Assembly (NCBI GenBank): GCA_003516025.1
Contig: CP023991.1
Location: forward strand, 570,001 to 602,000
Direction of reading: 5' to 3'
DNA: 32,000 bases
Source of the DNA: Candidatus Saccharimonadota bacterium
GTDB taxonomy: Bacteria > Patescibacteriota > Saccharimonadia > Saccharimonadales > UBA4665
Under the pieces are notes generated by a model. The model saw only the letters and a list, made by a program, of their open reading frames with translations, searched no databases and had not been told where the DNA came from. This document shows, piece by piece, positions 9,325 to 17,288 of this stretch (position 1 is the stretch's first letter; every line of letters begins with the position of its first letter). The position numbers were made by a program, and so were the translations under genes.

Positions 9325-9750
9325 GTGGCCGAAGACAAATCAGAAGCGGCAGGCAAATCAGACCAAACAGAGCGTACGAAGCGGCGCCTGCGTGCCAATA
9401 GCGAGACCGTCCGCGAGCGTTCCGAAAAACTGCAGCAACAGGACGAAGCCAGGCAGGCCAAAGGCGGTATACGCGCATTTTTGGGAGGCTTCCTGTGGCC
9501 GCTCCGGGCACTGGGACGACAAATCGCAAAACTCGGAAGATTCCGTTTCTTCCGCTGGGTCGGCTTGGTACTACTGCCACCGTATATCCGCAATAGTTGG
9601 CGCGAACTTCGTCAGGTTACCTGGCCTAACCGTAAGAAAACCTTTCAGCTGACCTACGCGGTTATTGTATTTTCAGTATTGTTCGGACTCGTCATCGCAG
9701 GAGTCGATTACGGACTTGATAAGTTATTTAAGGAGATAATTGTAAAATAA
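9325..9750 (+). CDS. secE: Preprotein translocase subunit SecE with a long charged N-terminal extension
   Basis: The C-terminal part VTWPNRKKTFQLTYAVIVFSVLFGLVIAGVDYGLDKLF is the canonical SecE TM segment. It sits immediately upstream of nusG with a TAATG overlap. GTG start with AAGGAG at 9314-9319. Confidence 0.85.
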   Translation: MAEDKSEAAGKSDQTERTKRRLRANSETVRERSEKLQQQDEARQAKGGIRAFLGGFLWPLRALGRQIAKLGRFRFFRWVGLVLLPPYIRNSWRELRQVTWPNRKKTFQLTYAVIVFSVLFGLVIAGVDYGLDKLFKEIIVK

Positions 9751-10295
9751 TGGCTACAAAACGCTACGACACCACCAAGCAATGGTATGCCATCCATACC
9801 TACAGCGGCTACGAAGAAAAAGTCGCCGAAAGTATCCGGCAGCGTGCTGACTCTTTGGACATGAAGGACAAGATTTACGAAGTCCTGGTTCCAAAAGAAA
9901 AAATGATTGAAATTAAGAACGGCAAGCGCCGCGTCGTGGAAAAGAAAATTTTCCAGGGCTACGTTATCGTCCAGATGAAAATGAGTGAAGACGCCTGGTA
10001 CATCGTTCGTAACACCCCGAGCGTTACCGGCTTCGTCGGCTCCGGCACGGAACCGACCCCACTCGGTGAGGAAGAGATCGAGAAAATCCAGAAGCGCATG
10101 GGTCTGGAACAGCCAAAGCACAAGATTGATTACCGCATCGGTGAAGTCGTTTCTATCACCGACGGTCCGTTTAAGGGCTTCGACGGCGCCATAAACGAAA
10201 TCGACGCTCAAAAGGGTAAATTAAAAGTTCTCGTCAACATGTTCGGACGCGAAACTCCGGTTGAGCTCGACTCGCTGCAAGTTAAGCGTGTGTAG
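9750..10295 (+). CDS. nusG: Transcription termination/antitermination factor NusG
   Basis: 181 aa. The NGN domain begins KQWYAIHTYSGYEEKV. KOW motif: GEVVSITDGPFKGFDGAINEID. Confidence 0.95.
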   Translation: MATKRYDTTKQWYAIHTYSGYEEKVAESIRQRADSLDMKDKIYEVLVPKEKMIEIKNGKRRVVEKKIFQGYVIVQMKMSEDAWYIVRNTPSVTGFVGSGTEPTPLGEEEIEKIQKRMGLEQPKHKIDYRIGEVVSITDGPFKGFDGAINEIDAQKGKLKVLVNMFGRETPVELDSLQVKRV

Positions 10296-10297
10296 CC

Positions 10298-10678
10298 ATG
10301 TCTGAGAGCGTACCAGAGCCTGACGATACCGCACCTGTTCCGCGACTGGAACAGGTAATCACCTATCGCTGTATAGCATTACGTGATGAGGCAGTTGCCT
10401 TGCGACTCCATAACCTCTCAGAGCGCGGAATGGCTCTGGTGATAGCATTTAGCGTGAGGACACAGGAAGCGGTTGGTGTTCCGTATGTCGCTGCTTTGAA
10501 CTCTCAATCACCCTATGTAAAAGCCATGAATGTCATAGCTGCCGAAGAGAAATCTGGCGCGATCGCAGAGGGCTCCACGCATGACGCGGTTCAGACAGCT
10601 ATGGAAGGAACATTGGAACACACCTCCTGGAACGAGTACGTAGAGCGCGCTCGCCAATATCCGTCGGCAGGGTCCTAA
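10298..10678 (+). CDS. Hypothetical protein (126 aa, acidic), inserted between nusG and rplK
   Basis: ATG lies 2 nt after the nusG stop. It is the only long ORF in any frame across this interval. I recognise no motif. Confidence 0.6.
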   Translation: MSESVPEPDDTAPVPRLEQVITYRCIALRDEAVALRLHNLSERGMALVIAFSVRTQEAVGVPYVAALNSQSPYVKAMNVIAAEEKSGAIAEGSTHDAVQTAMEGTLEHTSWNEYVERARQYPSAGS

Positions 10679-10728
10679 TCGCCCATCTTGACATAAGAGT
10701 TATAATATTATACACCTGCTGTCAATAG

Positions 10729-10787
10729 GCTTGTGCTTGGCGCGTATTGTACTTGCACGAATTAAGCGTACAGTATTAAGCACAAGC
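10729..10787 (+). promoter_or_regulatory. 59-nt imperfect hairpin between the two inserted ORFs
   Basis: Perfect 10-bp inverted repeat GCTTGTGCTT (10729-10738) / AAGCACAAGC (10778-10787). An inner 8-bp stem pairs 10745-10752 with 10768-10775 (one G-U). A TTGACA box lies at 10688-10693 upstream and AAGGAG at 10795-10800 downstream. Confidence 0.4.
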
Positions 10788-10813
10788 TTAATGTAAGGAG
10801 CATTGCGACCGCG

Positions 10814-11260
10814 ATGTCAGTACACGAAACCTCTCAAACCTCTGTAACACCTGTTATCAGATACGAGTCACGGGGTAATTTAGATTTTATCCTGATACCT
10901 AAAAGTATGCCTCGGGAATATAGCACATCCGTTGATTATTTAACCCGCTTACTACTGGCTGCCGGCGATCCGATGACCGCGGACGACGCCATATTGCTAC
11001 CCATGGACAAAGAGCGGGCTGACCGGCTTAAACTGAGTGAAGGGTTCCGCGGCGCGGATGCGGTCCGCAACGGCCGTAGCTACGAGAACAGGTATGACGC
11101 CGCGACGCGCCTGGCGGAAATGGCAATCGCCACATACTATCCTGAAATAGCGCCTGAAAGCCAGGTTCCAACTGGCGAGACTCTGGCCACAGTCATAGAA
11201 TTTCCGGCCGCTATACCGGCGCCGCGCCGCGAAGACGATCAGGTATTCGCGCAGGCCTAG
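10814..11260 (+). CDS. Hypothetical protein (148 aa), inserted between nusG and rplK
   Basis: ORF with host-like composition and no motif I recognise. The Shine-Dalgarno AAGGAG lies 13 nt upstream, which is long, so the start is somewhat uncertain. Confidence 0.55.
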   Translation: MSVHETSQTSVTPVIRYESRGNLDFILIPKSMPREYSTSVDYLTRLLLAAGDPMTADDAILLPMDKERADRLKLSEGFRGADAVRNGRSYENRYDAATRLAEMAIATYYPEIAPESQVPTGETLATVIEFPAAIPAPRREDDQVFAQA

Positions 11261-11264
11261 ACCC

Positions 11265-11293
11265 TTGGCAAAAACCGCCAGCACTGGTATAAT
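11265..11293 (+). promoter_or_regulatory. Strong extended -10 promoter for rplK
   Basis: TTGGCA (11265-11270), 17 nt, TATAAT (11288-11293), preceded by TGG (TGn). It predicts a leader of about 115 nt containing a CUC-UUCG-GAG hairpin followed by GGGGUUUUAUU (11367-11393) before AAGGAG at 11402-11407. Confidence 0.55.
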
Positions 11294-11415
11294 CACATCT
11301 GTTACGCACTACTAACTCTGCACTTCAGAGGTATAAACAGGTAGGAGAATAACAACCCGTCGCTTCCATTGCTCTTCGGAGTGGGGTTTTATTCGTTAAA
11401 TAAGGAGAATTATAA

Positions 11416-11847
11416 ATGGCAGAAAAACCAATCCGCGCCAATCTTAAGATGAAAATCCCTGGCGGCCGTGCCAGCGCAGCGCCTCCCGTAGGTAGCACGC
11501 TCGGACAGTACGGCGTTAACATGATGGACTTTATTAATCCGTTCAACGACATGACTAAGGATATGCAGGGACAGACCGTTACCGCGCACATCACCGTCTA
11601 CACGGATCGCACCATGAAATTCCGTGTTGTCGGCGCGCCAACCGACGATCGCATCCGCGCTGAGCTTGGAATCAAAAAAGGTTCCGGCAAGCCGAACAGC
11701 GAAAAGCTTCCCCAGAAACTGACGCAGGCTCAACTGCAGAAGATTGCTGAAGAAAAAGCTCACGATATGAACACCGACGATGTCGAAGCCGTTAAGAAAA
11801 TGGTTGCCGGCACAGCCCGTTCAATGGGCGTTGAAGTCGAAGGTTAG
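11416..11847 (+). CDS. rplK: 50S ribosomal protein L11
   Basis: 143 aa. Contains PPVGSTLGQYGVNMMDF, ...GSGKPN..., and a C-terminal GTARSMGVEVEG typical of L11. Confidence 0.95.
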   Translation: MAEKPIRANLKMKIPGGRASAAPPVGSTLGQYGVNMMDFINPFNDMTKDMQGQTVTAHITVYTDRTMKFRVVGAPTDDRIRAELGIKKGSGKPNSEKLPQKLTQAQLQKIAEEKAHDMNTDDVEAVKKMVAGTARSMGVEVEG

Positions 11848-11848
11848 C

Positions 11849-12049
11849 ATGGCCGAATTAATGTTTCAACGCGTGTACAGCCCTGATACATCTATATATC
11901 CCGTAACAGAGCCACGTGACGAAGCCGCGATCGACCAGGACAACCGGAGAGTCGCATATAATACACTGCGGTCCGCGCGGGAAGCAGGTGAGATCCAAAC
12001 CGCTCAAGAAATGCTTGGCGTTATCGCTTTCTCGGAAGCTCACGAATAA
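11849..12049 (+). CDS. Small acidic hypothetical protein (66 aa) between rplK and rplA
   Basis: ATG at 11849 lies 1 nt after the rplK stop, with GAAGG 5-6 nt upstream. The track version (11780) overlaps rplK. Counted net charge is about -6. Confidence 0.5.
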   Translation: MAELMFQRVYSPDTSIYPVTEPRDEAAIDQDNRRVAYNTLRSAREAGEIQTAQEMLGVIAFSEAHE

Positions 12050-12051
12050 AT

Positions 12052-12258
12052 ATGTCGATTACTGAAATTTACACCGCCTATGATGACACATTCGACATAC
12101 TGCCCGAGGATCAAGATATATGTTTCGAGTCCGACCACGCGCCGTTTGAAATTGAGCATGACAGGCGGAAGACCGCGGCGGAAGTAATGCGGCTTGTTCC
12201 AGAAACCATTGTTCCGGCTTTTGATCTTGAGACACGGATCAAAGAGAAAATTGTTTAA
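12052..12258 (+). CDS. Small very acidic hypothetical protein (68 aa) between rplK and rplA
   Basis: ATG lies 2 nt after the preceding stop. I count 17 D/E versus 7 K/R. No motif recognised. Confidence 0.5.
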   Translation: MSITEIYTAYDDTFDILPEDQDICFESDHAPFEIEHDRRKTAAEVMRLVPETIVPAFDLETRIKEKIV

Positions 12259-12314
12259 TTAAGATTGTGGGAGGCTCGTAAAACAGCCGTTCGCACCACT
12301 AAAGGAGAATAATT

Positions 12315-13277
12315 ATGGCAGACGCCAATCCAGGAAAATCAAAGAAGAAAGTAGCTGAACTGGGCGACGAAGGTATTGCTGACGTTACCACCACGGCAGA
12401 AGCAACGGAAGTCGTGGAAGAGAAGCACGAAGCTAAAACCGCGTCAGTCGCCAAGTCCGGCAAGCGCAGCGCGAAGTCATTGGCTGAAGCTGAAGCTGAT
12501 GCCGCCAAAGAAGAGCGCAAAGCTTCTAAAACTACCGCCGAGGGCGAAGAAGCACCAAAGCAGAAGCATAACCCAACCCGTTCTAAATTAGAGCGCTCTG
12601 GCAAAAACTTCAAAAAAGCCGCTGAACAGATCGAAAAAGACAAGTCTTACGGTTTGGAAGAAGCTTTGGAACTGGCAACCAAGACCAGCCCGGTTAAGTT
12701 TGACGCTACCGTTGAGCTGCATGTCAACCTGCGTGTTGACCCGCGCCATGCCGACCAGAACATCCGCGACAACTTCGTTTTACCGCAAGGTACTGGTAAA
12801 AGCGTGCGTGTCGCCGTCTTCGCGGACGTTGATGACGCGGCAGCCGCCACTAAAGCCGGTGCCGACATCGCCGGTATCGAAGACATCACCAAAATGCTCG
12901 ATAAGGGCAACATGGACTTCGATATCCTGGTTGCGACACCATCACAGATGGCTAAGCTTGGTAAGTACGCCCGGGCTCTCGGTCCTCGCGGTTTGATGCC
13001 CAACCCTAAGAGCGGTACGGTTACGACTGACGTCACTAAGGCTGTTACAGAAGCTAAAGCCGGCCGTGTTGAGTACCGCGTTGATTCAACCGGTATCGTT
13101 CACCTCGGCATGGGTAAGGTCAGCTTCGGTACCGCCCGTTTACTGGAAAATGCTCAAGCAGTATTAGCCAACATCAAGGCTAACAAACCTGCCAGCGTTA
13201 AAGGTACCTATGTAAAGGCCATCCACATTTCAACCACTATGGGCCCATCCATCACGGTTGAAACCAGCGCCCTGTAG
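12315..13277 (+). CDS. rplA: 50S ribosomal protein L1 with an N-terminal K/E/A-rich extension of about 90 aa
   Basis: The core from about residue 92 ([57 protein letters not shown]...) aligns with bacterial L1. AAGGAG at 12302-12307 supports ATG 12315. There is no other ATG in the first ~110 codons. Confidence 0.92.
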
Positions 13278-13302
13278 CCTAAGACGCTCCGCGTTCGCAT
13301 AT

Positions 13303-13332
13303 AAGCACCCTCGGTAATTCAGGGTGCTTTTT
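13303..13332 (+). terminator. Intrinsic terminator after rplA
   Basis: AAGCACCCT (13303-13311) pairs with AGGGTGCTT (13321-13329) across a 9-nt loop, with a T-run to 13332. Confidence 0.75.
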
Positions 13333-13350
13333 GCATGCTACAATACCAGC

Positions 13351-14106
13351 ATGAAAATAATTGGCATCTGTGGGGAAATTGGAAGCGGTAAATCGACGTT
13401 TGCCGAACTTATCACCGGTATCGATACGGAACACTCCCTGCACTTGGAAACCTCAACCATCATCAGCGAACTTGGTAATACGTTTAATGTAAGCCTGCGG
13501 GAGCATGATATTACGCAGGACGATGATATCGCTGTAACGAATACCATACTGCCCACGTTGCTACCCCAGTTAGCCACAATGGCCGAACGTGACATTGGCA
13601 TAAACGAGTTAGGCATCAACCCGGCTGACGCGCAGTTGCACCCGCAGTGGTATGAGAAATTATTTGTGTACTTAGATCTCATCCGGCAGCAGCCGCAGCT
13701 GATCGAGGATATTATTACTCCGGCGAATAAAGATACCTACCGCCCGTTGCTCCAGTGGATTGGTGGTTACGTGCTTTACCGGCTGGACAATCCGCTGTTG
13801 TGGTACCAGGAGCTAATGCACCGGGTTCATTGGGAGCAAGACGTTAATTTGGTAGCCTTAACGGCGCCACGGCAGCCAGCCGAAGGCGACTTTGTACGGC
13901 AGATGGGTGGCCAAGTCATAAAAGTGGTCCGGCCAATCCTTACTGCCGATACTGCCGATGTCACAGAGCAGAATGCGCTCCGTATCGTAGCCGACATAAC
14001 GGTAATCAATAATGGAACGCTGGAAGAGCTGGCGGCCCTGGCCGGTCGGCTTCACCGGGATATAACACATGGCATGCCGGGCGCTGTCTATATCGCTCAC
14101 GAATAA
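13351..14106 (+). CDS. P-loop nucleotide kinase-like protein (dephospho-CoA kinase / dNMP kinase-like)
   Basis: MKIIGICGEIGSGKSTFAE is a Walker A in a CoaE/dNMP-kinase-like context. The C-terminal VINNGTLEELAAL resembles the end of that fold. I prefer ATG 13351 because the track start 13324 lies inside the rplA terminator. Confidence 0.6.
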   Translation: MKIIGICGEIGSGKSTFAELITGIDTEHSLHLETSTIISELGNTFNVSLREHDITQDDDIAVTNTILPTLLPQLATMAERDIGINELGINPADAQLHPQWYEKLFVYLDLIRQQPQLIEDIITPANKDTYRPLLQWIGGYVLYRLDNPLLWYQELMHRVHWEQDVNLVALTAPRQPAEGDFVRQMGGQVIKVVRPILTADTADVTEQNALRIVADITVINNGTLEELAALAGRLHRDITHGMPGAVYIAHE

Positions 14107-14218
14107 TTCCGTAAAAGCATGTGCGTGTTGTGAAACGTTTTGCGTAAAAAACACATTATTATTTGCTTGCCCTCGCGTGAACAGATTAGTAGAATACTGA
14201 CTAGCGGAGGAGAACACT

Positions 14219-14932
14219 TTGGGAGTTTACAGTAATCTTGATATTAGGCGCGCACTCGACGAAGGTCATATTGTGTGCCACCCTTTTAACCCTAAGCAAG
14301 TCAGCCATGCCAGCCTGGATGTCACACTTGGTTATTATTTTTACCGCATGGAGCGCATGCAAGAACGCACGATTTATAATCCATTCGACCGCGAAGATGT
14401 GGAACGGTACTTTGACGGCCCGTATAAGGCGATGCCTCACGGTGAGTGGTGCAAGCTTAATGGCCTAACTCCTTATAAAAACATCCCGTTAGACCATCCG
14501 GTCATCGCGCTTAAGCCACGCGAACGTATCCTGGCGCATACCCACGAATTTTTTGGCATTAAACCACCTGGCGCCGCAGAAGTGAAAGCGCGCTCCAGCT
14601 GGGGACGCAACGGTGTGGCCGTGTGCTTTGACGCTGGTTGGATTGACCCCGGTTACATTAACCGCCTGACACTGGAAATTTATAACCTCAATGAGCGTGA
14701 AACGGTATTACTACCGGTCGGAGAGCGCATCGCTCAGATCATTTACCACACGACCGGCGAGGTAGAAGGTAGCTACGGCGAAGGCAGGGATGAAGGTTTT
14801 AGCGGCAAGTACCAACAGGGCAGTGACCTGGAAACGATCATCAAAACATGGTCACCAGATATGATGCTGCCCCGGGCCTATAAAGACTCACGAACTATGC
14901 CTGTTAAGGTTGAGGGCTTGTCTTATGAGTAA
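14219..14932 (+). CDS. dcd: dCTP deaminase family protein (Dcd / dUTPase superfamily)
   Basis: 237 aa. N-terminal LDIRRALDEGHIV...ASLDVTLG and core ARSSWGRNGV...AGWIDPGYINRLTLEIYNLN parallel the E. coli Dcd blocks (GRSSLARLG...IDPGW...LE.YN). TTG start with GGAGGAG upstream. The 3' end overlaps the next gene by 8 nt. Confidence 0.8.
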   Translation: MGVYSNLDIRRALDEGHIVCHPFNPKQVSHASLDVTLGYYFYRMERMQERTIYNPFDREDVERYFDGPYKAMPHGEWCKLNGLTPYKNIPLDHPVIALKPRERILAHTHEFFGIKPPGAAEVKARSSWGRNGVAVCFDAGWIDPGYINRLTLEIYNLNERETVLLPVGERIAQIIYHTTGEVEGSYGEGRDEGFSGKYQQGSDLETIIKTWSPDMMLPRAYKDSRTMPVKVEGLSYE

Positions 14933-17288
14933 GGGTAAGTACATCGTACTCGAGGGTCCGGAGGGTGTAGGCAAGACGACACAGATACTGGAACTGTCGC
15001 GCCGTTTGCAGGCTGCTGGCTTGCCAGTACGGGTACTACGTGAACCCGATAGTCAAAGCGACCTGACAGCCCGGGCCATCCGCCAGCTGACCCAGGACCC
15101 GCGTTACCCTATGAATACGCGTACTGAAGTACTCTTGTATAACGCTGCACGCGCGCAGTCGCTGCAGGTTATCCGTGAAAGTGTCGCTCAAGGCGTTCAC
15201 TGTATTGTTGATCGAAACTACCTTACTACACTGGCTATTCAATATTACGGTCGCGGCGACGTGCCGGATTACGAAACCATTAACAGCATCATTGCTTTCG
15301 CGGTCGGCGACATGGAACCGGATCTCTGCGTCGTGCTTGATGCGCCAGTGCAGACATTGAAAGAACGTGCCGGACACCGCGGCAGCGGTGAACGTTTCGA
15401 TAACCTGGACGAGGCATTCCTGGAACGAGTTCGGGCTGGTTATCTCTGGGAGGCCAAACAGCGTGATTTCCCCGTAGTTTTCGCTAATGAACCCCCTGAA
15501 ATTGTCGCTGAAGAGATATGGCAACACGTTACAACGGAACTCGGCAAACGAAAAGGAAGTATTTCTACTACCAGCCAGCCTGAGTCAATTAAACAGATCG
15601 TGGCCACCAAAGCCAGCACAAAGCAGGCAAGCGGCACAGTTGAAGCACCGGCACTCAACGAAGCTACAAAAACGTCAGTTCCTGATCCGGCCGAAGAAGA
15701 AAAAGCGCTGGTCCAAAAAGATAACAACGGTCGTTATACCATTACTGAAGATGGTTACAGCTACCTTAAAGATGCCGTCACTGATACAACAGGCAACGTC
15801 TATGCTTTTACAGACAAACTAAGCCCGGTAACAATCGCCGCCGCCATGGCCCGGCTGAGCCGCCGCGGCGATGATATGCGCATTACTATCCTTGATGAGT
15901 TTGCCGAAAAAGCCGGCAAGGATGAGAAGCTGCTGCAACGCGTCATTACGGCTTACGGTGATGATTCAGTACAGCAGCTAGCCGGCATGCACGTGGTTAT
16001 AGAAAACGCCAGCAACTTGCTAACCAAAAAACTTGAGTGGGGACGCTTGGCAGCCTACCTCGAACAATCAACCCGATACATTTACTATGATCAGAAAGAT
16101 CAGCGGGGTCAGTATAAGTATCATATTCCCAAAGAATTAGATGAAAAAATCCGTCAGGAATACTGCATACATATTGATCGCATCTTCGACCTGTATTCCA
16201 GTATGGTTCATCGCTTAACTGATTACGTACGCGAGCACTCCAGCGTGCCACAAGCCGAACGAGACGTTGCGTTTAATAGCGCCACCAGAGCGCAGGCATG
16301 TGATGCCATTCGCCCAGTACTGCCTGTGGCCACAACCTCAACCGTCGGAATATTTGGTTCAGGTCAGGCTCTGGAAAACCTCATTATGCACTTGCAATCA
16401 GAAGATACGCAGGAAGCCCGTGATACCGGTGATGACATTTTGAAAGCAGTACGCCAAGTGACACCTATATTATTCGAACGAGCCGATAAACCGGATCGGG
16501 GCGGAGCAGCTATAGCCTACCGCGCTACTACCAAGCAAAAGGTTTCTGAATTGGCGGATGAATACCTGTCCGATTTCCATGCGGACGGCAACCCGGAACC
16601 AGTGACACTCACCGACGTATGGCCTGCCAATGAACTACAGTTAGTAGCCGATATGCTCTATGAGCACAGTTCATTGCCACTAAGCGCTATCCAAAAAGCA
16701 GTAGCCACCTGGAGCTATGACAAAAAGGCTTCTGTATTGCAAGCTTACATGGGCGAACGGCTTAATCGCCGTCACCGCCCGGGTCGGGCCCTTGAAAAAG
16801 CGCACTACAGTTGGGATCTCGTTTGTGATTACGGCATCTTCCGCGATTTGCAACGCCACCGTATGGTAGATGATTTGGAATGGCAGCAGCTGTCTCCTCG
16901 CTACGGTTTCGAAGTGCCTGAACTGGTCGATGAAGCGGGCTTAACTGACGATTTCGAAGAATGTTTCGCTATAAGCCTTAAACTGTATAGCCTACTGCAG
17001 CAAGCAGGCTACAAAACCGAAGCCCAATACGCTACGTTGCTTGGTCACCGGATGCGCTGGAAGGTTACCTACAATGCCCGCGAAGCCTTTCACCTGCATG
17101 AACTGCGTACCAGCCCGCAAGGCCATCCTGGATACCGTAAATTAGTACAGCAAATGCATGAAAAATTAGCCGAACAGCATCCAATGCTGGCCGAAGCTAT
17201 GAAGTTTGTTAATAAAGGCGAAGACGAAGAACTAACGCGCCTTGCCGCTGAACGCTACACGCAGTTTAAACTGAACCAGTTGCAGTAG
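14925..17288 (+). CDS. tmk-thyX: Fusion protein: N-terminal thymidylate kinase (Tmk) + S/T/A/K/E-rich linker + long (tandem) flavin-dependent thymidylate synthase ThyX-like region
   Basis: 787 aa from ATG 14925. Residues 1-205 form the Tmk domain: YIVLEGPEGVGKTTQ P-loop and VDRNYLT. Residues ~206-265 form a low-complexity linker. The rest is ThyX-like. One half carries WGRLAAYLEQSTRY (nt ~16035-16079). The other carries the ThyX signature RHR (nt 16854-16862) ...LSPRY. Confidence 0.8.
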   Translation: MSKGKYIVLEGPEGVGKTTQILELSRRLQAAGLPVRVLREPDSQSDLTARAIRQLTQDPRYPMNTRTEVLLYNAARAQSLQVIRESVAQGVHCIVDRNYLTTLAIQYYGRGDVPDYETINSIIAFAVGDMEPDLCVVLDAPVQTLKERAGHRGSGERFDNLDEAFLERVRAGYLWEAKQRDFPVVFANEPPEIVAEEIWQHVTTELGKRKGSISTTSQPESIKQIVATKASTKQASGTVEAPALNEATKTSVPDPAEEEKALVQKDNNGRYTITEDGYSYLKDAVTDTTGNVYAFTDKLSPVTIAAAMARLSRRGDDMRITILDEFAEKAGKDEKLLQRVITAYGDDSVQQLAGMHVVIENASNLLTKKLEWGRLAAYLEQSTRYIYYDQKDQRGQYKYHIPKELDEKIRQEYCIHIDRIFDLYSSMVHRLTDYVREHSSVPQAERDVAFNSATRAQACDAIRPVLPVATTSTVGIFGSGQALENLIMHLQSEDTQEARDTGDDILKAVRQVTPILFERADKPDRGGAAIAYRATTKQKVSELADEYLSDFHADGNPEPVTLTDVWPANELQLVADMLYEHSSLPLSAIQKAVATWSYDKKASVLQAYMGERLNRRHRPGRALEKAHYSWDLVCDYGIFRDLQRHRMVDDLEWQQLSPRYGFEVPELVDEAGLTDDFEECFAISLKLYSLLQQAGYKTEAQYATLLGHRMRWKVTYNAREAFHLHELRTSPQGHPGYRKLVQQMHEKLAEQHPMLAEAMKFVNKGEDEELTRLAAERYTQFKLNQLQ

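Follow-up and report, generated by a model that had tools for sequence, protein, structure and literature searches.

In bacteria, the genes for ribosomal proteins L11 (rplK) and L1 (rplA) are normally adjacent, and they are co-regulated by the binding of L1 to their messenger RNA (mRNA). In Escherichia coli, the L1 site lies before rplK and rplA is translationally coupled to rplK, according to the part of Fu et al. (2013) on which we draw (PMC3616713). The same part of that paper describes an L1 site that precedes rplA in Actinobacteria, Cyanobacteria and Chloroflexi, dual L1 sites with nanomolar L1 binding in vitro in Firmicutes, an L1-interacting mRNA structure validated for Geobacillus kaustophilus and, as an archaeal case, the L1 mRNA of Methanococcus vannielii. 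Here, we describe the rplK-rplA interval of a Candidatus Saccharimonadota bacterium, using a stretch of 32,000 nucleotides (nt) from contig CP023991.1 (GenBank assembly GCA_003516025.1, positions 570,001 to 602,000), which we call the window and whose own numbering is used throughout. Two short acidic open reading frames (ORFs), named ORF1 and ORF2, fill most of this interval, and a hairpin that resembles the L1 site of 23S ribosomal RNA (rRNA) separates them from rplA. With moderate confidence, we read the two ORFs as genes for acidic proteins that evolve fast and travel as passengers on the L11-L1 mRNA.

The hairpin has much in common with the L1 mRNA structure of Fu et al.: it is a short stem with an asymmetric internal loop, it mimics 23S rRNA, and it abuts the Shine-Dalgarno (SD) sequence of rplA. 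The host, however, belongs to the Saccharibacteria, part of the Candidate Phyla Radiation (CPR), which are not among the phyla named in the part of PMC3616713 used here. There is also a single site, with none before rplK, and protein-coding inserts lie between the operator and rplK. With the E. coli L11 operon, the locus would share one transcript for rplK and rplA and L1 as a putative repressor acting through a 23S mimic; it differs in having the site before rplA and two extra ORFs between the two ribosomal protein genes. An earlier reading of this DNA, referred to below as the original prediction, spoke of a regulatory site relocated to the rplA leader. This is apt relative to E. coli and not in general, since a site before rplA is the published norm in other phyla.

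On the left, the interval is bounded by rplK (L11, 143 amino acids (aa); 11416..11847, + strand), which matches the Pfam families Ribosomal_L11_N (E = 1.4e-21) and Ribosomal_L11 (E = 6.6e-19) and ends in a TAG stop codon at 11845-11847. After a single nucleotide, C11848, ORF1 runs on the + strand from an ATG at 11849 to a TAA at 12047-12049 (11849..12049, 66 aa, net charge -6). Its stop is followed, 2 nt further on, by ORF2, also on the + strand, from an ATG at 12052 to a TAA at 12256-12258 (12052..12258, 68 aa, net charge -10). The back-to-back arrangement, the lengths and the spacings of 1 and 2 nt had been given in the original prediction and are exact in the sequence, and both net charges came out the same when recomputed. 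An SD-like GAAGG in the last codons of rplK (11839..11843, + strand), 5 nt before the ATG of ORF1, may promote its initiation; the same context is found before slot ORFs of two relatives (L026 and L005 in our numbering of loci). From the stop of ORF2 to the hairpin there is an AT-rich spacer of 8 nt, TTAAGATT, with many stop codons (12259..12266, + strand).

Of the 419 nt between the rplK stop and the hairpin, 408 (97%) belong to one or other of the two ORFs, a coverage matched by none of 500 dinucleotide-preserving shuffles (mean 242, maximum 399). Codon usage gives a second line of evidence. When stop codons are left out of the scoring, the annotated frame outscores the other five, with +0.17 bits per codon for ORF1 and +0.22 for ORF2, to be read against 0.29 +/- 0.12 for real genes and a mean of -0.46 for off-frames. 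The annotated frame is likewise the best in 19 of 22 slot ORFs, a set that includes ORF1 and ORF2. Both ORFs are called by gene callers in three public assemblies of the same organism, and their proteins are identical in all five contigs that carry them. Normalized for length, ORF1 and ORF2 have net charges of -9.1 and -14.7 per 100 aa, and each of the 23 other proteins of the window is less acidic (-6.8 to +9.9). The other assemblies match the window exactly, save for one, L003 (ERZ27293392), which differs at two single-nucleotide positions, 11745 and 11843, both inside rplK.

The interval proves to be variable across the clade. Our comparison covers 82 Saccharibacteria loci, 25 from genome and assembly sets and 57 from metagenomes. 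The distance between rplK and the operator, which we refer to as the slot, is at least 150 nt in 18 of the 25 genome and assembly loci and in 39 of the 57 metagenome loci (~70% overall), and slots of this size are nearly filled by one or two + strand ORFs whose starts lie mostly 0-13 nt past the previous stop. The other loci have just 6-16 nt from rplK to the operator, or short non-coding stretches. Outside the Saccharibacteria, the rplK-rplA gap is 143 nt or less in all 53 loci compared. The nearest relatives by L1, which are Saccharibacteria metagenome-assembled genomes throughout, have L1 proteins 83-88% identical to that of the window; between them and the window, nucleotide similarity ends exactly at the rplK stop and restarts exactly at the operator. 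In 18 of 23 relatives, 6-16 nt separate GUGGGA from the stop codon upstream of it, whether that stop belongs to rplK or to a slot ORF; the corresponding distance in the metagenome set is mostly 3-28 nt. These observations strongly support a variable slot that exists clade-wide, with the rplK stop as its left border and the conserved L1 operator as its right border.

What the ORFs in this slot have in common is composition. Acidic proteins are encoded by 59 of the 62 slot ORFs (mean -7.3 per 100 aa; median length 83 aa). The first 22 of them differ in charge from a set of 133 long ORFs taken from the same genomes (mean 0.0 +/- 3.5 per 100 aa; Mann-Whitney p = 2e-11), and the other five frames of the same slot DNA have a mean of +9.7 per 100 aa. 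Lysine makes up 2.4% of residues compared with 6.4% in the reference set, and aspartate, glutamate and alanine are enriched. According to the original prediction, poor conservation of the interval, with frame-disrupting indels in close relatives, would refute it. The interval is indeed unconserved in sequence, even in the nearest relatives, yet frame, strand, coupling and acidity are conserved clade-wide. In the literature that we searched, we found no description of a class of ORFs in the L11-L1 operon that is defined by position and composition.

The hairpin that closes the slot lies at 12267..12299 on the + strand and reads GUGG-GA-GGCU-CGUAAAAC-AGCC-GUUCGCA-CCAC, as the original prediction had it. 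Positions 12267-12270 and 12296-12299 form the outer helix, P1; G12271 and A12272 make up the junction; and 12273-12276 pair with 12285-12288 in the inner helix, P2, with 12289-12295 as the 3' joint. Only 2 nt separate the end of the hairpin from the rplA SD sequence, AAGGAG (12302..12307, + strand). The core GUGGGAGGCU...AGCCG...ACCAC is identical to positions 2121-2130, 2158-2162 and 2173-2177 of the 23S rRNA encoded by E. coli rrlH, the reference chosen for the comparison with the 23S L1 site that had been proposed at the outset; we take the matched region, 2121-2177, to be helices 77-78 of the L1 stalk.

Conservation and covariation both point to a functional RNA. The motif GU(U)GGGA...ACCAC occurs directly 5' of the rplA SD sequence in all 26 Saccharibacteria loci of the first set, and the layout CACCAC-N(0-3)-(A)AGGAG is kept across these loci. 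In the GGGA and ACCAC columns, conservation is complete or no lower than 90%, and the stem carries an asymmetric G-A internal loop as in the class consensus. All six modelled pairs of P2 change on both sides with pairing kept. Paired cells amount to 88%, compared with 72% in shuffles (reached in 0 of 500) and 33-55% in shifted registers, and the covariation score is 0.307 compared with 0.088 in shuffles (again 0 of 500); P1 (GUGG/CCAC) never varies and is therefore uninformative in this respect.

A covariance model built from Saccharibacteria sites only (R1) finds the hairpin as its sole site in the window (41 bits, E = 6.7e-8), with no second L1 site before rplK. Applied to 58 loci from outside the Saccharibacteria, it gives 31 matches, all on the + (gene) strand, the best with E = 2.5e-6 and 5.9e-6. 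These matches, in loci of Firmicutes (Clostridia), Actinomycetota and Chloroflexota, fall either immediately ahead of rplA or ~480 nt upstream, ahead of rplK, which is the pattern described by Fu et al. A scan of 11150-12450 for Rfam ribosomal leaders, a check suggested with the original prediction, found no such leader and no other family, whether at gathering score or with E relaxed to 10, although it was not established whether Rfam 15 includes an L1-leader model. The suggestion that the hairpin is an L1 autoregulatory site is thus well supported, as a conserved and covarying copy of the 23S L1 site whose model recovers known sites elsewhere. There is strong support for regarding the hairpin as a new phylum-level member of the known L1 regulatory RNA, which would be bound by L1 and mediate repression.

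Downstream of the operator, rplA (12315..13277, + strand) encodes an L1 of 320 aa with a Pfam Ribosomal_L1 match at residues 123-311 (E = 9.9e-60). Ahead of this domain is an N-terminal extension of ~95 aa, rich in lysine, alanine and glutamate (window 12315-12600); an N-terminal extension of L1 has been reported for Saccharibacteria (PMC9297842). Upstream of rplK, a sigma-70-type promoter (TTGGCA, 17 nt, TATAAT, with a TG; 11265..11293, + strand) matches 11 of 12 consensus positions and is the only promoter-like site in 10200-13400. Between this promoter and the end of rplA, the + strand shows no terminator-like site. A single rplK-ORF1-ORF2-rplA transcript is thus what these sites most simply suggest, and this promoter probably drives all four genes as one unit. 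In the 5' untranslated region of rplK (11343-11396), we also observed an SD-like sequence, AGGAGAATAACAA, that lacks a start codon. It closely copies the true SD regions of rplK and rplA (at 11403 and 12303) and provides the 5' side of a long hairpin whose end is GGGGUUUUAUUC; this fold does not reach statistical significance, and the stretch contains no L1 site.

Searches for homologues of ORF1 and ORF2 returned only the proteins themselves. Among 5.8e9 proteins, each gave a self match only, as did ORF2 in a full HMMER search of 1.84e9 cluster representatives. The tblastn and hidden Markov model (HMM) searches of related genomes that had been proposed for both peptides brought up no homologue in relatives: tblastx and tblastn of the ORFs and of the slot found nothing in ~170 related loci and no paralogue in the rest of the window. 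ORF1, ORF2 and two further orphan ORFs between nusG and rplK match no Pfam, PHROG, PADLOC or NCBIfam family, and no Ribosomal_L12 domain appears in ORF1 or ORF2 with Pfam or NCBIfam at E up to 1. Pfam likewise gave nothing significant on 20 slot ORFs of relatives. A sequence search of the PDB found nothing for ORF1 and, for ORF2, only matches with E of at least 0.26.

AlphaFold2 predicts that ORF1 has a disordered N-terminus followed by a helical hairpin at residues 25-65, with a predicted local distance difference test (pLDDT) score of 78.9 overall and of 81-97 across residues 21-60. Foldseek searches with this model gave no match with E < 0.8 and only generic helical hairpins; matches to viral models had E of at least 0.84. 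Of the traits of a nucleic-acid mimic, acidity is present, and there is no structural match for the ORF1 model and only a poor model for ORF2. ORF1 and ORF2 combine self matches only with coding evidence from the shuffle and codon frame tests, as orphan genes do. It is strongly supported, by evidence of this sequence-based kind, that they are genuine orphan genes, which would travel as passengers on the rplK-rplA mRNA, and equally that both appear to be under selection to remain open.

How such proteins evolve can be followed in one pair of relatives. Loci L095 and L097 carry a homologous slot ORF of 68 aa, aligned without indel or stop, for which the synonymous divergence (dS) is 0.54, the nonsynonymous divergence (dN) is 0.22 and their ratio (omega) is 0.41; for rplK and rplA of the same pair, omega is 0.03 at a dS of about 0.5-0.7. 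In neutral simulations of this frame, 12.5% stay open, and the observed ratio of nonsynonymous to synonymous differences per site (pN/pS) falls in the lowest 0.8% of those (p = 0.008). HMM searches join these ORFs, L095_3727 and L097_3727, with L085_2380 and L093_813 in a slot-ORF family (E = 1e-4 to 9e-3). This family (L085 2380-2679, L093 813-1157, and 3727-3933 in both L095 and L097) is the only recognizable one among the 62 slot ORFs, and its motifs, F-x-R-[IV] and [SN]-P-x-x-[WY]-x-x-[FYML]-L, are shared over saturated distances. Slot ORFs can thus be vertically inherited, protein-coding and under purifying selection, evolving ~10 times faster than ribosomal proteins; at this rate, recognizable conservation is limited to the open frame, the coupling and the acidity.

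For the window itself, even the nearest relatives are far away: at 4-fold degenerate sites they share an identity of 0.35-0.50 with it, where 0.28 is expected at random, and the deoxynucleoside monophosphate (dNMP) kinase, an ordinary neighbouring enzyme, is only 49-52% identical. With 4-fold sites so near saturation, a protein evolving at the measured rate would be unrecognizable at this distance, and loss of similarity is expected in a weakly constrained protein of 66 aa. For the same reason, cassette replacement and rapid divergence cannot be told apart in the rplK-rplA slot. We considered a kinship between ORF1 and L009_4168 and rejected it, since the pairwise comparison (z = 3.5) is not borne out by consistent aligned regions and HMM iteration recruits neither ORF. 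Nor do we claim the likeness of motifs that the eye may see between ORF1 and L009, L085 and L095, which HMM iteration did not turn into recruitment.

We propose the following model for the operon. Transcription would proceed from the single promoter at 11265-11293. Ribosomes finishing rplK would go on to ORF1, aided by GAAGG and by an ATG 1 nt past the stop, and ORF2 would be translated by termination-reinitiation 2 nt past the ORF1 stop. Translation would end 8 nt short of the operator. The products would be small, lysine-poor acidic proteins in amounts comparable to L11. As is established for this class of RNA, L1 in excess over free rRNA would bind the operator and block initiation at rplA independently of rplK. 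With its own SD sequence and its own L1 operator, rplA would not depend on direct coupling to rplK, and this independence is probably why the slot tolerates insertions. As for what the proteins might do, they could act electrostatically, as partners or buffers, on the basic RNA-binding proteins that this mRNA also encodes; of the possible roles we think this the likeliest, with low confidence. A wider idea, to which we assign a similarly low probability, is that the slot is a 'nursery' in which small acidic proteins arise, diverge and are replaced, with selection acting on position, translation and charge and not on sequence. Its products would either modulate L1/L11 homeostasis, for example as RNA-mimicking buffers that set the operator threshold, or form an obligatory translation relay.

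Several points weigh against passenger proteins as the explanation for ORF1 and ORF2. We infer the translation of both ORFs from sequence alone, and ORF2 lacks a strong SD sequence. No collection searched holds a diverged copy of either ORF, and since the five contigs carry identical proteins, selection on ORF1 and ORF2 themselves is not measurable. The evidence from dN/dS and from the family was obtained on other members of the class and is extended to ORF1 and ORF2 by analogy: neither is found among matches to the family HMM at E up to 20, and the best values for ORF1 (E = 0.3-1.8, against L009_4168) are not significant. The insert is missing in ~30% of relatives, so its products must be dispensable. 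Among the 62 slot ORFs, 58 are singletons with no detectable relative in the set, which is also compatible with repeated replacement or de novo origin. The AlphaFold2 model of ORF2 (pLDDT 59.5) has no confident fold and is unusable. Finally, the minimum free energy of the hairpin is by itself unremarkable (z = -0.76), so that the case for the operator rests on covariation.

The main rival to passenger proteins is a translated spacer, or relay, in which only the act of translation matters and any insert behind rplK has to keep an open frame, so as to carry ribosomes from rplK up to the L1 operator, a few nucleotides short of it. Such a relay would prevent transcriptional polarity and keep the coupling and geometry of rplA control; the peptides would be by-products, and their acidity would reflect selection for harmlessness at the expression levels of ribosomal proteins. 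It would account for frames that stay open and acidic where sequence conservation is almost nil, for starts tightly coupled to the preceding stop, and for the stop placed 6-16 nt before GUGGGA in 18 of 23 loci, with rplK or a slot ORF upstream alike. Even the short non-coding slots of L023 and L089 (116 and 96 nt) hold mini-ORFs, of 21 and 18 codons, that end 7 and 11 nt before the operator. However, an omega of 0.41 and a family with conserved motifs, kept at saturated synonymous distance, mean that amino acid sequence matters in at least one lineage. Moreover, similar acidic orphans sit between nusG and rplK, where rplK's own promoter makes a relay needless, and several loci have 30-79 nt between stop and operator. 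The relay also leaves unexplained how inserts originate and persist in genomes of ~1 Mb, and on balance we regard it as improbable. The same turnover of sequence bears on the idea, which goes back to the original prediction, that ORF1 and ORF2 are specific partners of the ribosome or of L1 and L11, binding L11, the stalk or L1, the last perhaps through its basic N-terminal extension, or mimicking rRNA so as to titrate L1 off its operator and tune autoregulation. Lying between rplK and the operator, they would be co-expressed with L11 and L1, they are strongly acidic and depleted in lysine, and the Saccharibacteria-specific basic extension of L1 could be the partner. Extreme turnover would nevertheless be unusual in partners of highly conserved ribosomal proteins, neither ORF matches Ribosomal_L12 or any ribosome-associated family, and of the relatives with this L1 extension, ~30% have no slot ORF. 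We therefore think specific partnership quite unlikely.

The variability of the slot could also suggest horizontally acquired cassettes, that is, mobile or phage genes such as anti-defence DNA mimics that have settled in a permissive and highly expressed site. Unrelated ORFs do occupy the same slot in close relatives, genomes with 95% identical L1 proteins have different content in the nusG-rplK slot, and small acidic proteins are typical of anti-restriction mimics. Against this, searches of 50,697 phage and 72,556 plasmid records found no similar sequence, neither PHROG nor PADLOC has a matching family, and there is no viral fold match, no integrase and no meaningful flanking direct or inverted repeats; codon usage is host-like, and one slot ORF is vertically inherited. 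A mobile origin is, in our judgement, very unlikely. The least probable explanation, which we likewise consider very unlikely, is a non-coding spacer or decayed pseudogene with accidental open frames. Homologues are found nowhere, ORF2 has no confident fold and the interval is not alignable with relatives, all of which would fit. An accident would not, however, be expected to produce a coverage reached in 0 of 500 shuffles, a strand, coupling and acidity that recur in 62 ORFs from more than 50 genomes, acidic products from DNA whose random frames are basic (+9.7 per 100 aa), or gene-like codon usage. The 'degenerate coding remnants' offered as one option in the original prediction fare no better, as the frames are open, codon usage is gene-like and a related pair of slot ORFs shows purifying selection.

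As candidate passenger proteins, ORF1 and ORF2 invite comparison with three groups of small or acidic proteins. Ocr, ArdA and DMP-type nucleic-acid mimics are small and strongly acidic. ORF1 and ORF2 are likewise small and acidic, without similarity to them in sequence or fold, and they are chromosomal members of a core operon and not carried on mobile elements. The stalk protein bL12 (L7/L12) is acidic and alanine-rich and is encoded near rplA in most bacteria, but ORF1 and ORF2 are half its length, are not conserved and have no Ribosomal_L12 Pfam match. The third group consists of bacterial orphan small genes, for which we refer to the parts available to us of studies of species-specific orphans in gut bacteria (PMC11293555) and of helical new proteins of Apilactobacillus kunkeei (bioRxiv 10.1101/2023.08.08.552426). 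As far as these parts go, ORF1 and ORF2 resemble such genes in lacking homologues, in being small and predicted to be helical or disordered, and in having host-like codon usage. They differ from what is described there in occupying a fixed slot in a ribosomal protein operon that recurs clade-wide, and in belonging to a set of ORFs that share an acidic, lysine-poor composition despite unrelated sequences.

This work extends the L1 autoregulatory RNA to Saccharibacteria and the CPR, where Rfam annotation gave nothing, and supplies an alignment together with a covariance model; these also retrieve the sites published for other phyla. It shows that the near-universal adjacency of rplK and rplA is broken by orphan ORFs in ~70% of the 82 sampled Saccharibacteria loci, and that these ORFs share only position, strand, coupling and acidity. 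If they are functional, genomes of ~1 Mb would encode abundant proteins that are invisible to homology-based annotation. If only their translation matters, they would offer a natural system for studying how operon architecture constrains inserts and how genes are born in highly expressed operons. Were the 'nursery' idea to prove true, they would form an undescribed class of operon-embedded micro-proteins, defined by composition and free of a shared sequence.

Several other features of the window merit description. Upstream of rplK lie secE (9325-9750) and nusG (9750-10295), and the nusG-rplK interval (10296-11415) is a second variable slot with two orphan acidic ORFs. The first, of 126 aa and net charge -7 (10298-10678), starts 2 nt past the nusG stop and has one weak homologue, at 3887-4279 of L089 (E = 4e-6). 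The second, of 148 aa and net charge -7 (10814-11260), ends 4 nt before the rplK promoter. Between them, a stretch of 34 nt (10765-10798) shares 85% identity with positions 1334-1367 of L085, although the ORFs on either side are unalignable. In relatives, this slot can be as short as 27 nt or as long as 3.4 kb, and sigma-70-like genes may lie in it (L011 2253-3524, L012 3167-4213 and L008 275-550). Its content is unlike in L095 and L097 despite their 95% identical L1 proteins.

Downstream of rplA, an intergenic element of 26-35 nt, TTTGCGTAAAAAACACATTATTATTTGCTTGCC (14138-14171), lies upstream of the gene for deoxycytidine triphosphate (dCTP) deaminase (14219-14932). The element is 94-100% identical in L085, L087, L088 and L089 despite near-saturated synonymous sites, and is probably a promoter or operator of genes for deoxynucleoside triphosphate (dNTP) metabolism. 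Further downstream, thymidylate kinase (PF02223) and ThyX, the flavin-dependent thymidylate synthase (PF02511), are joined in one ORF of ~790 aa (14910-17288), a fusion that is conserved in the relatives L085, L089 and L095.

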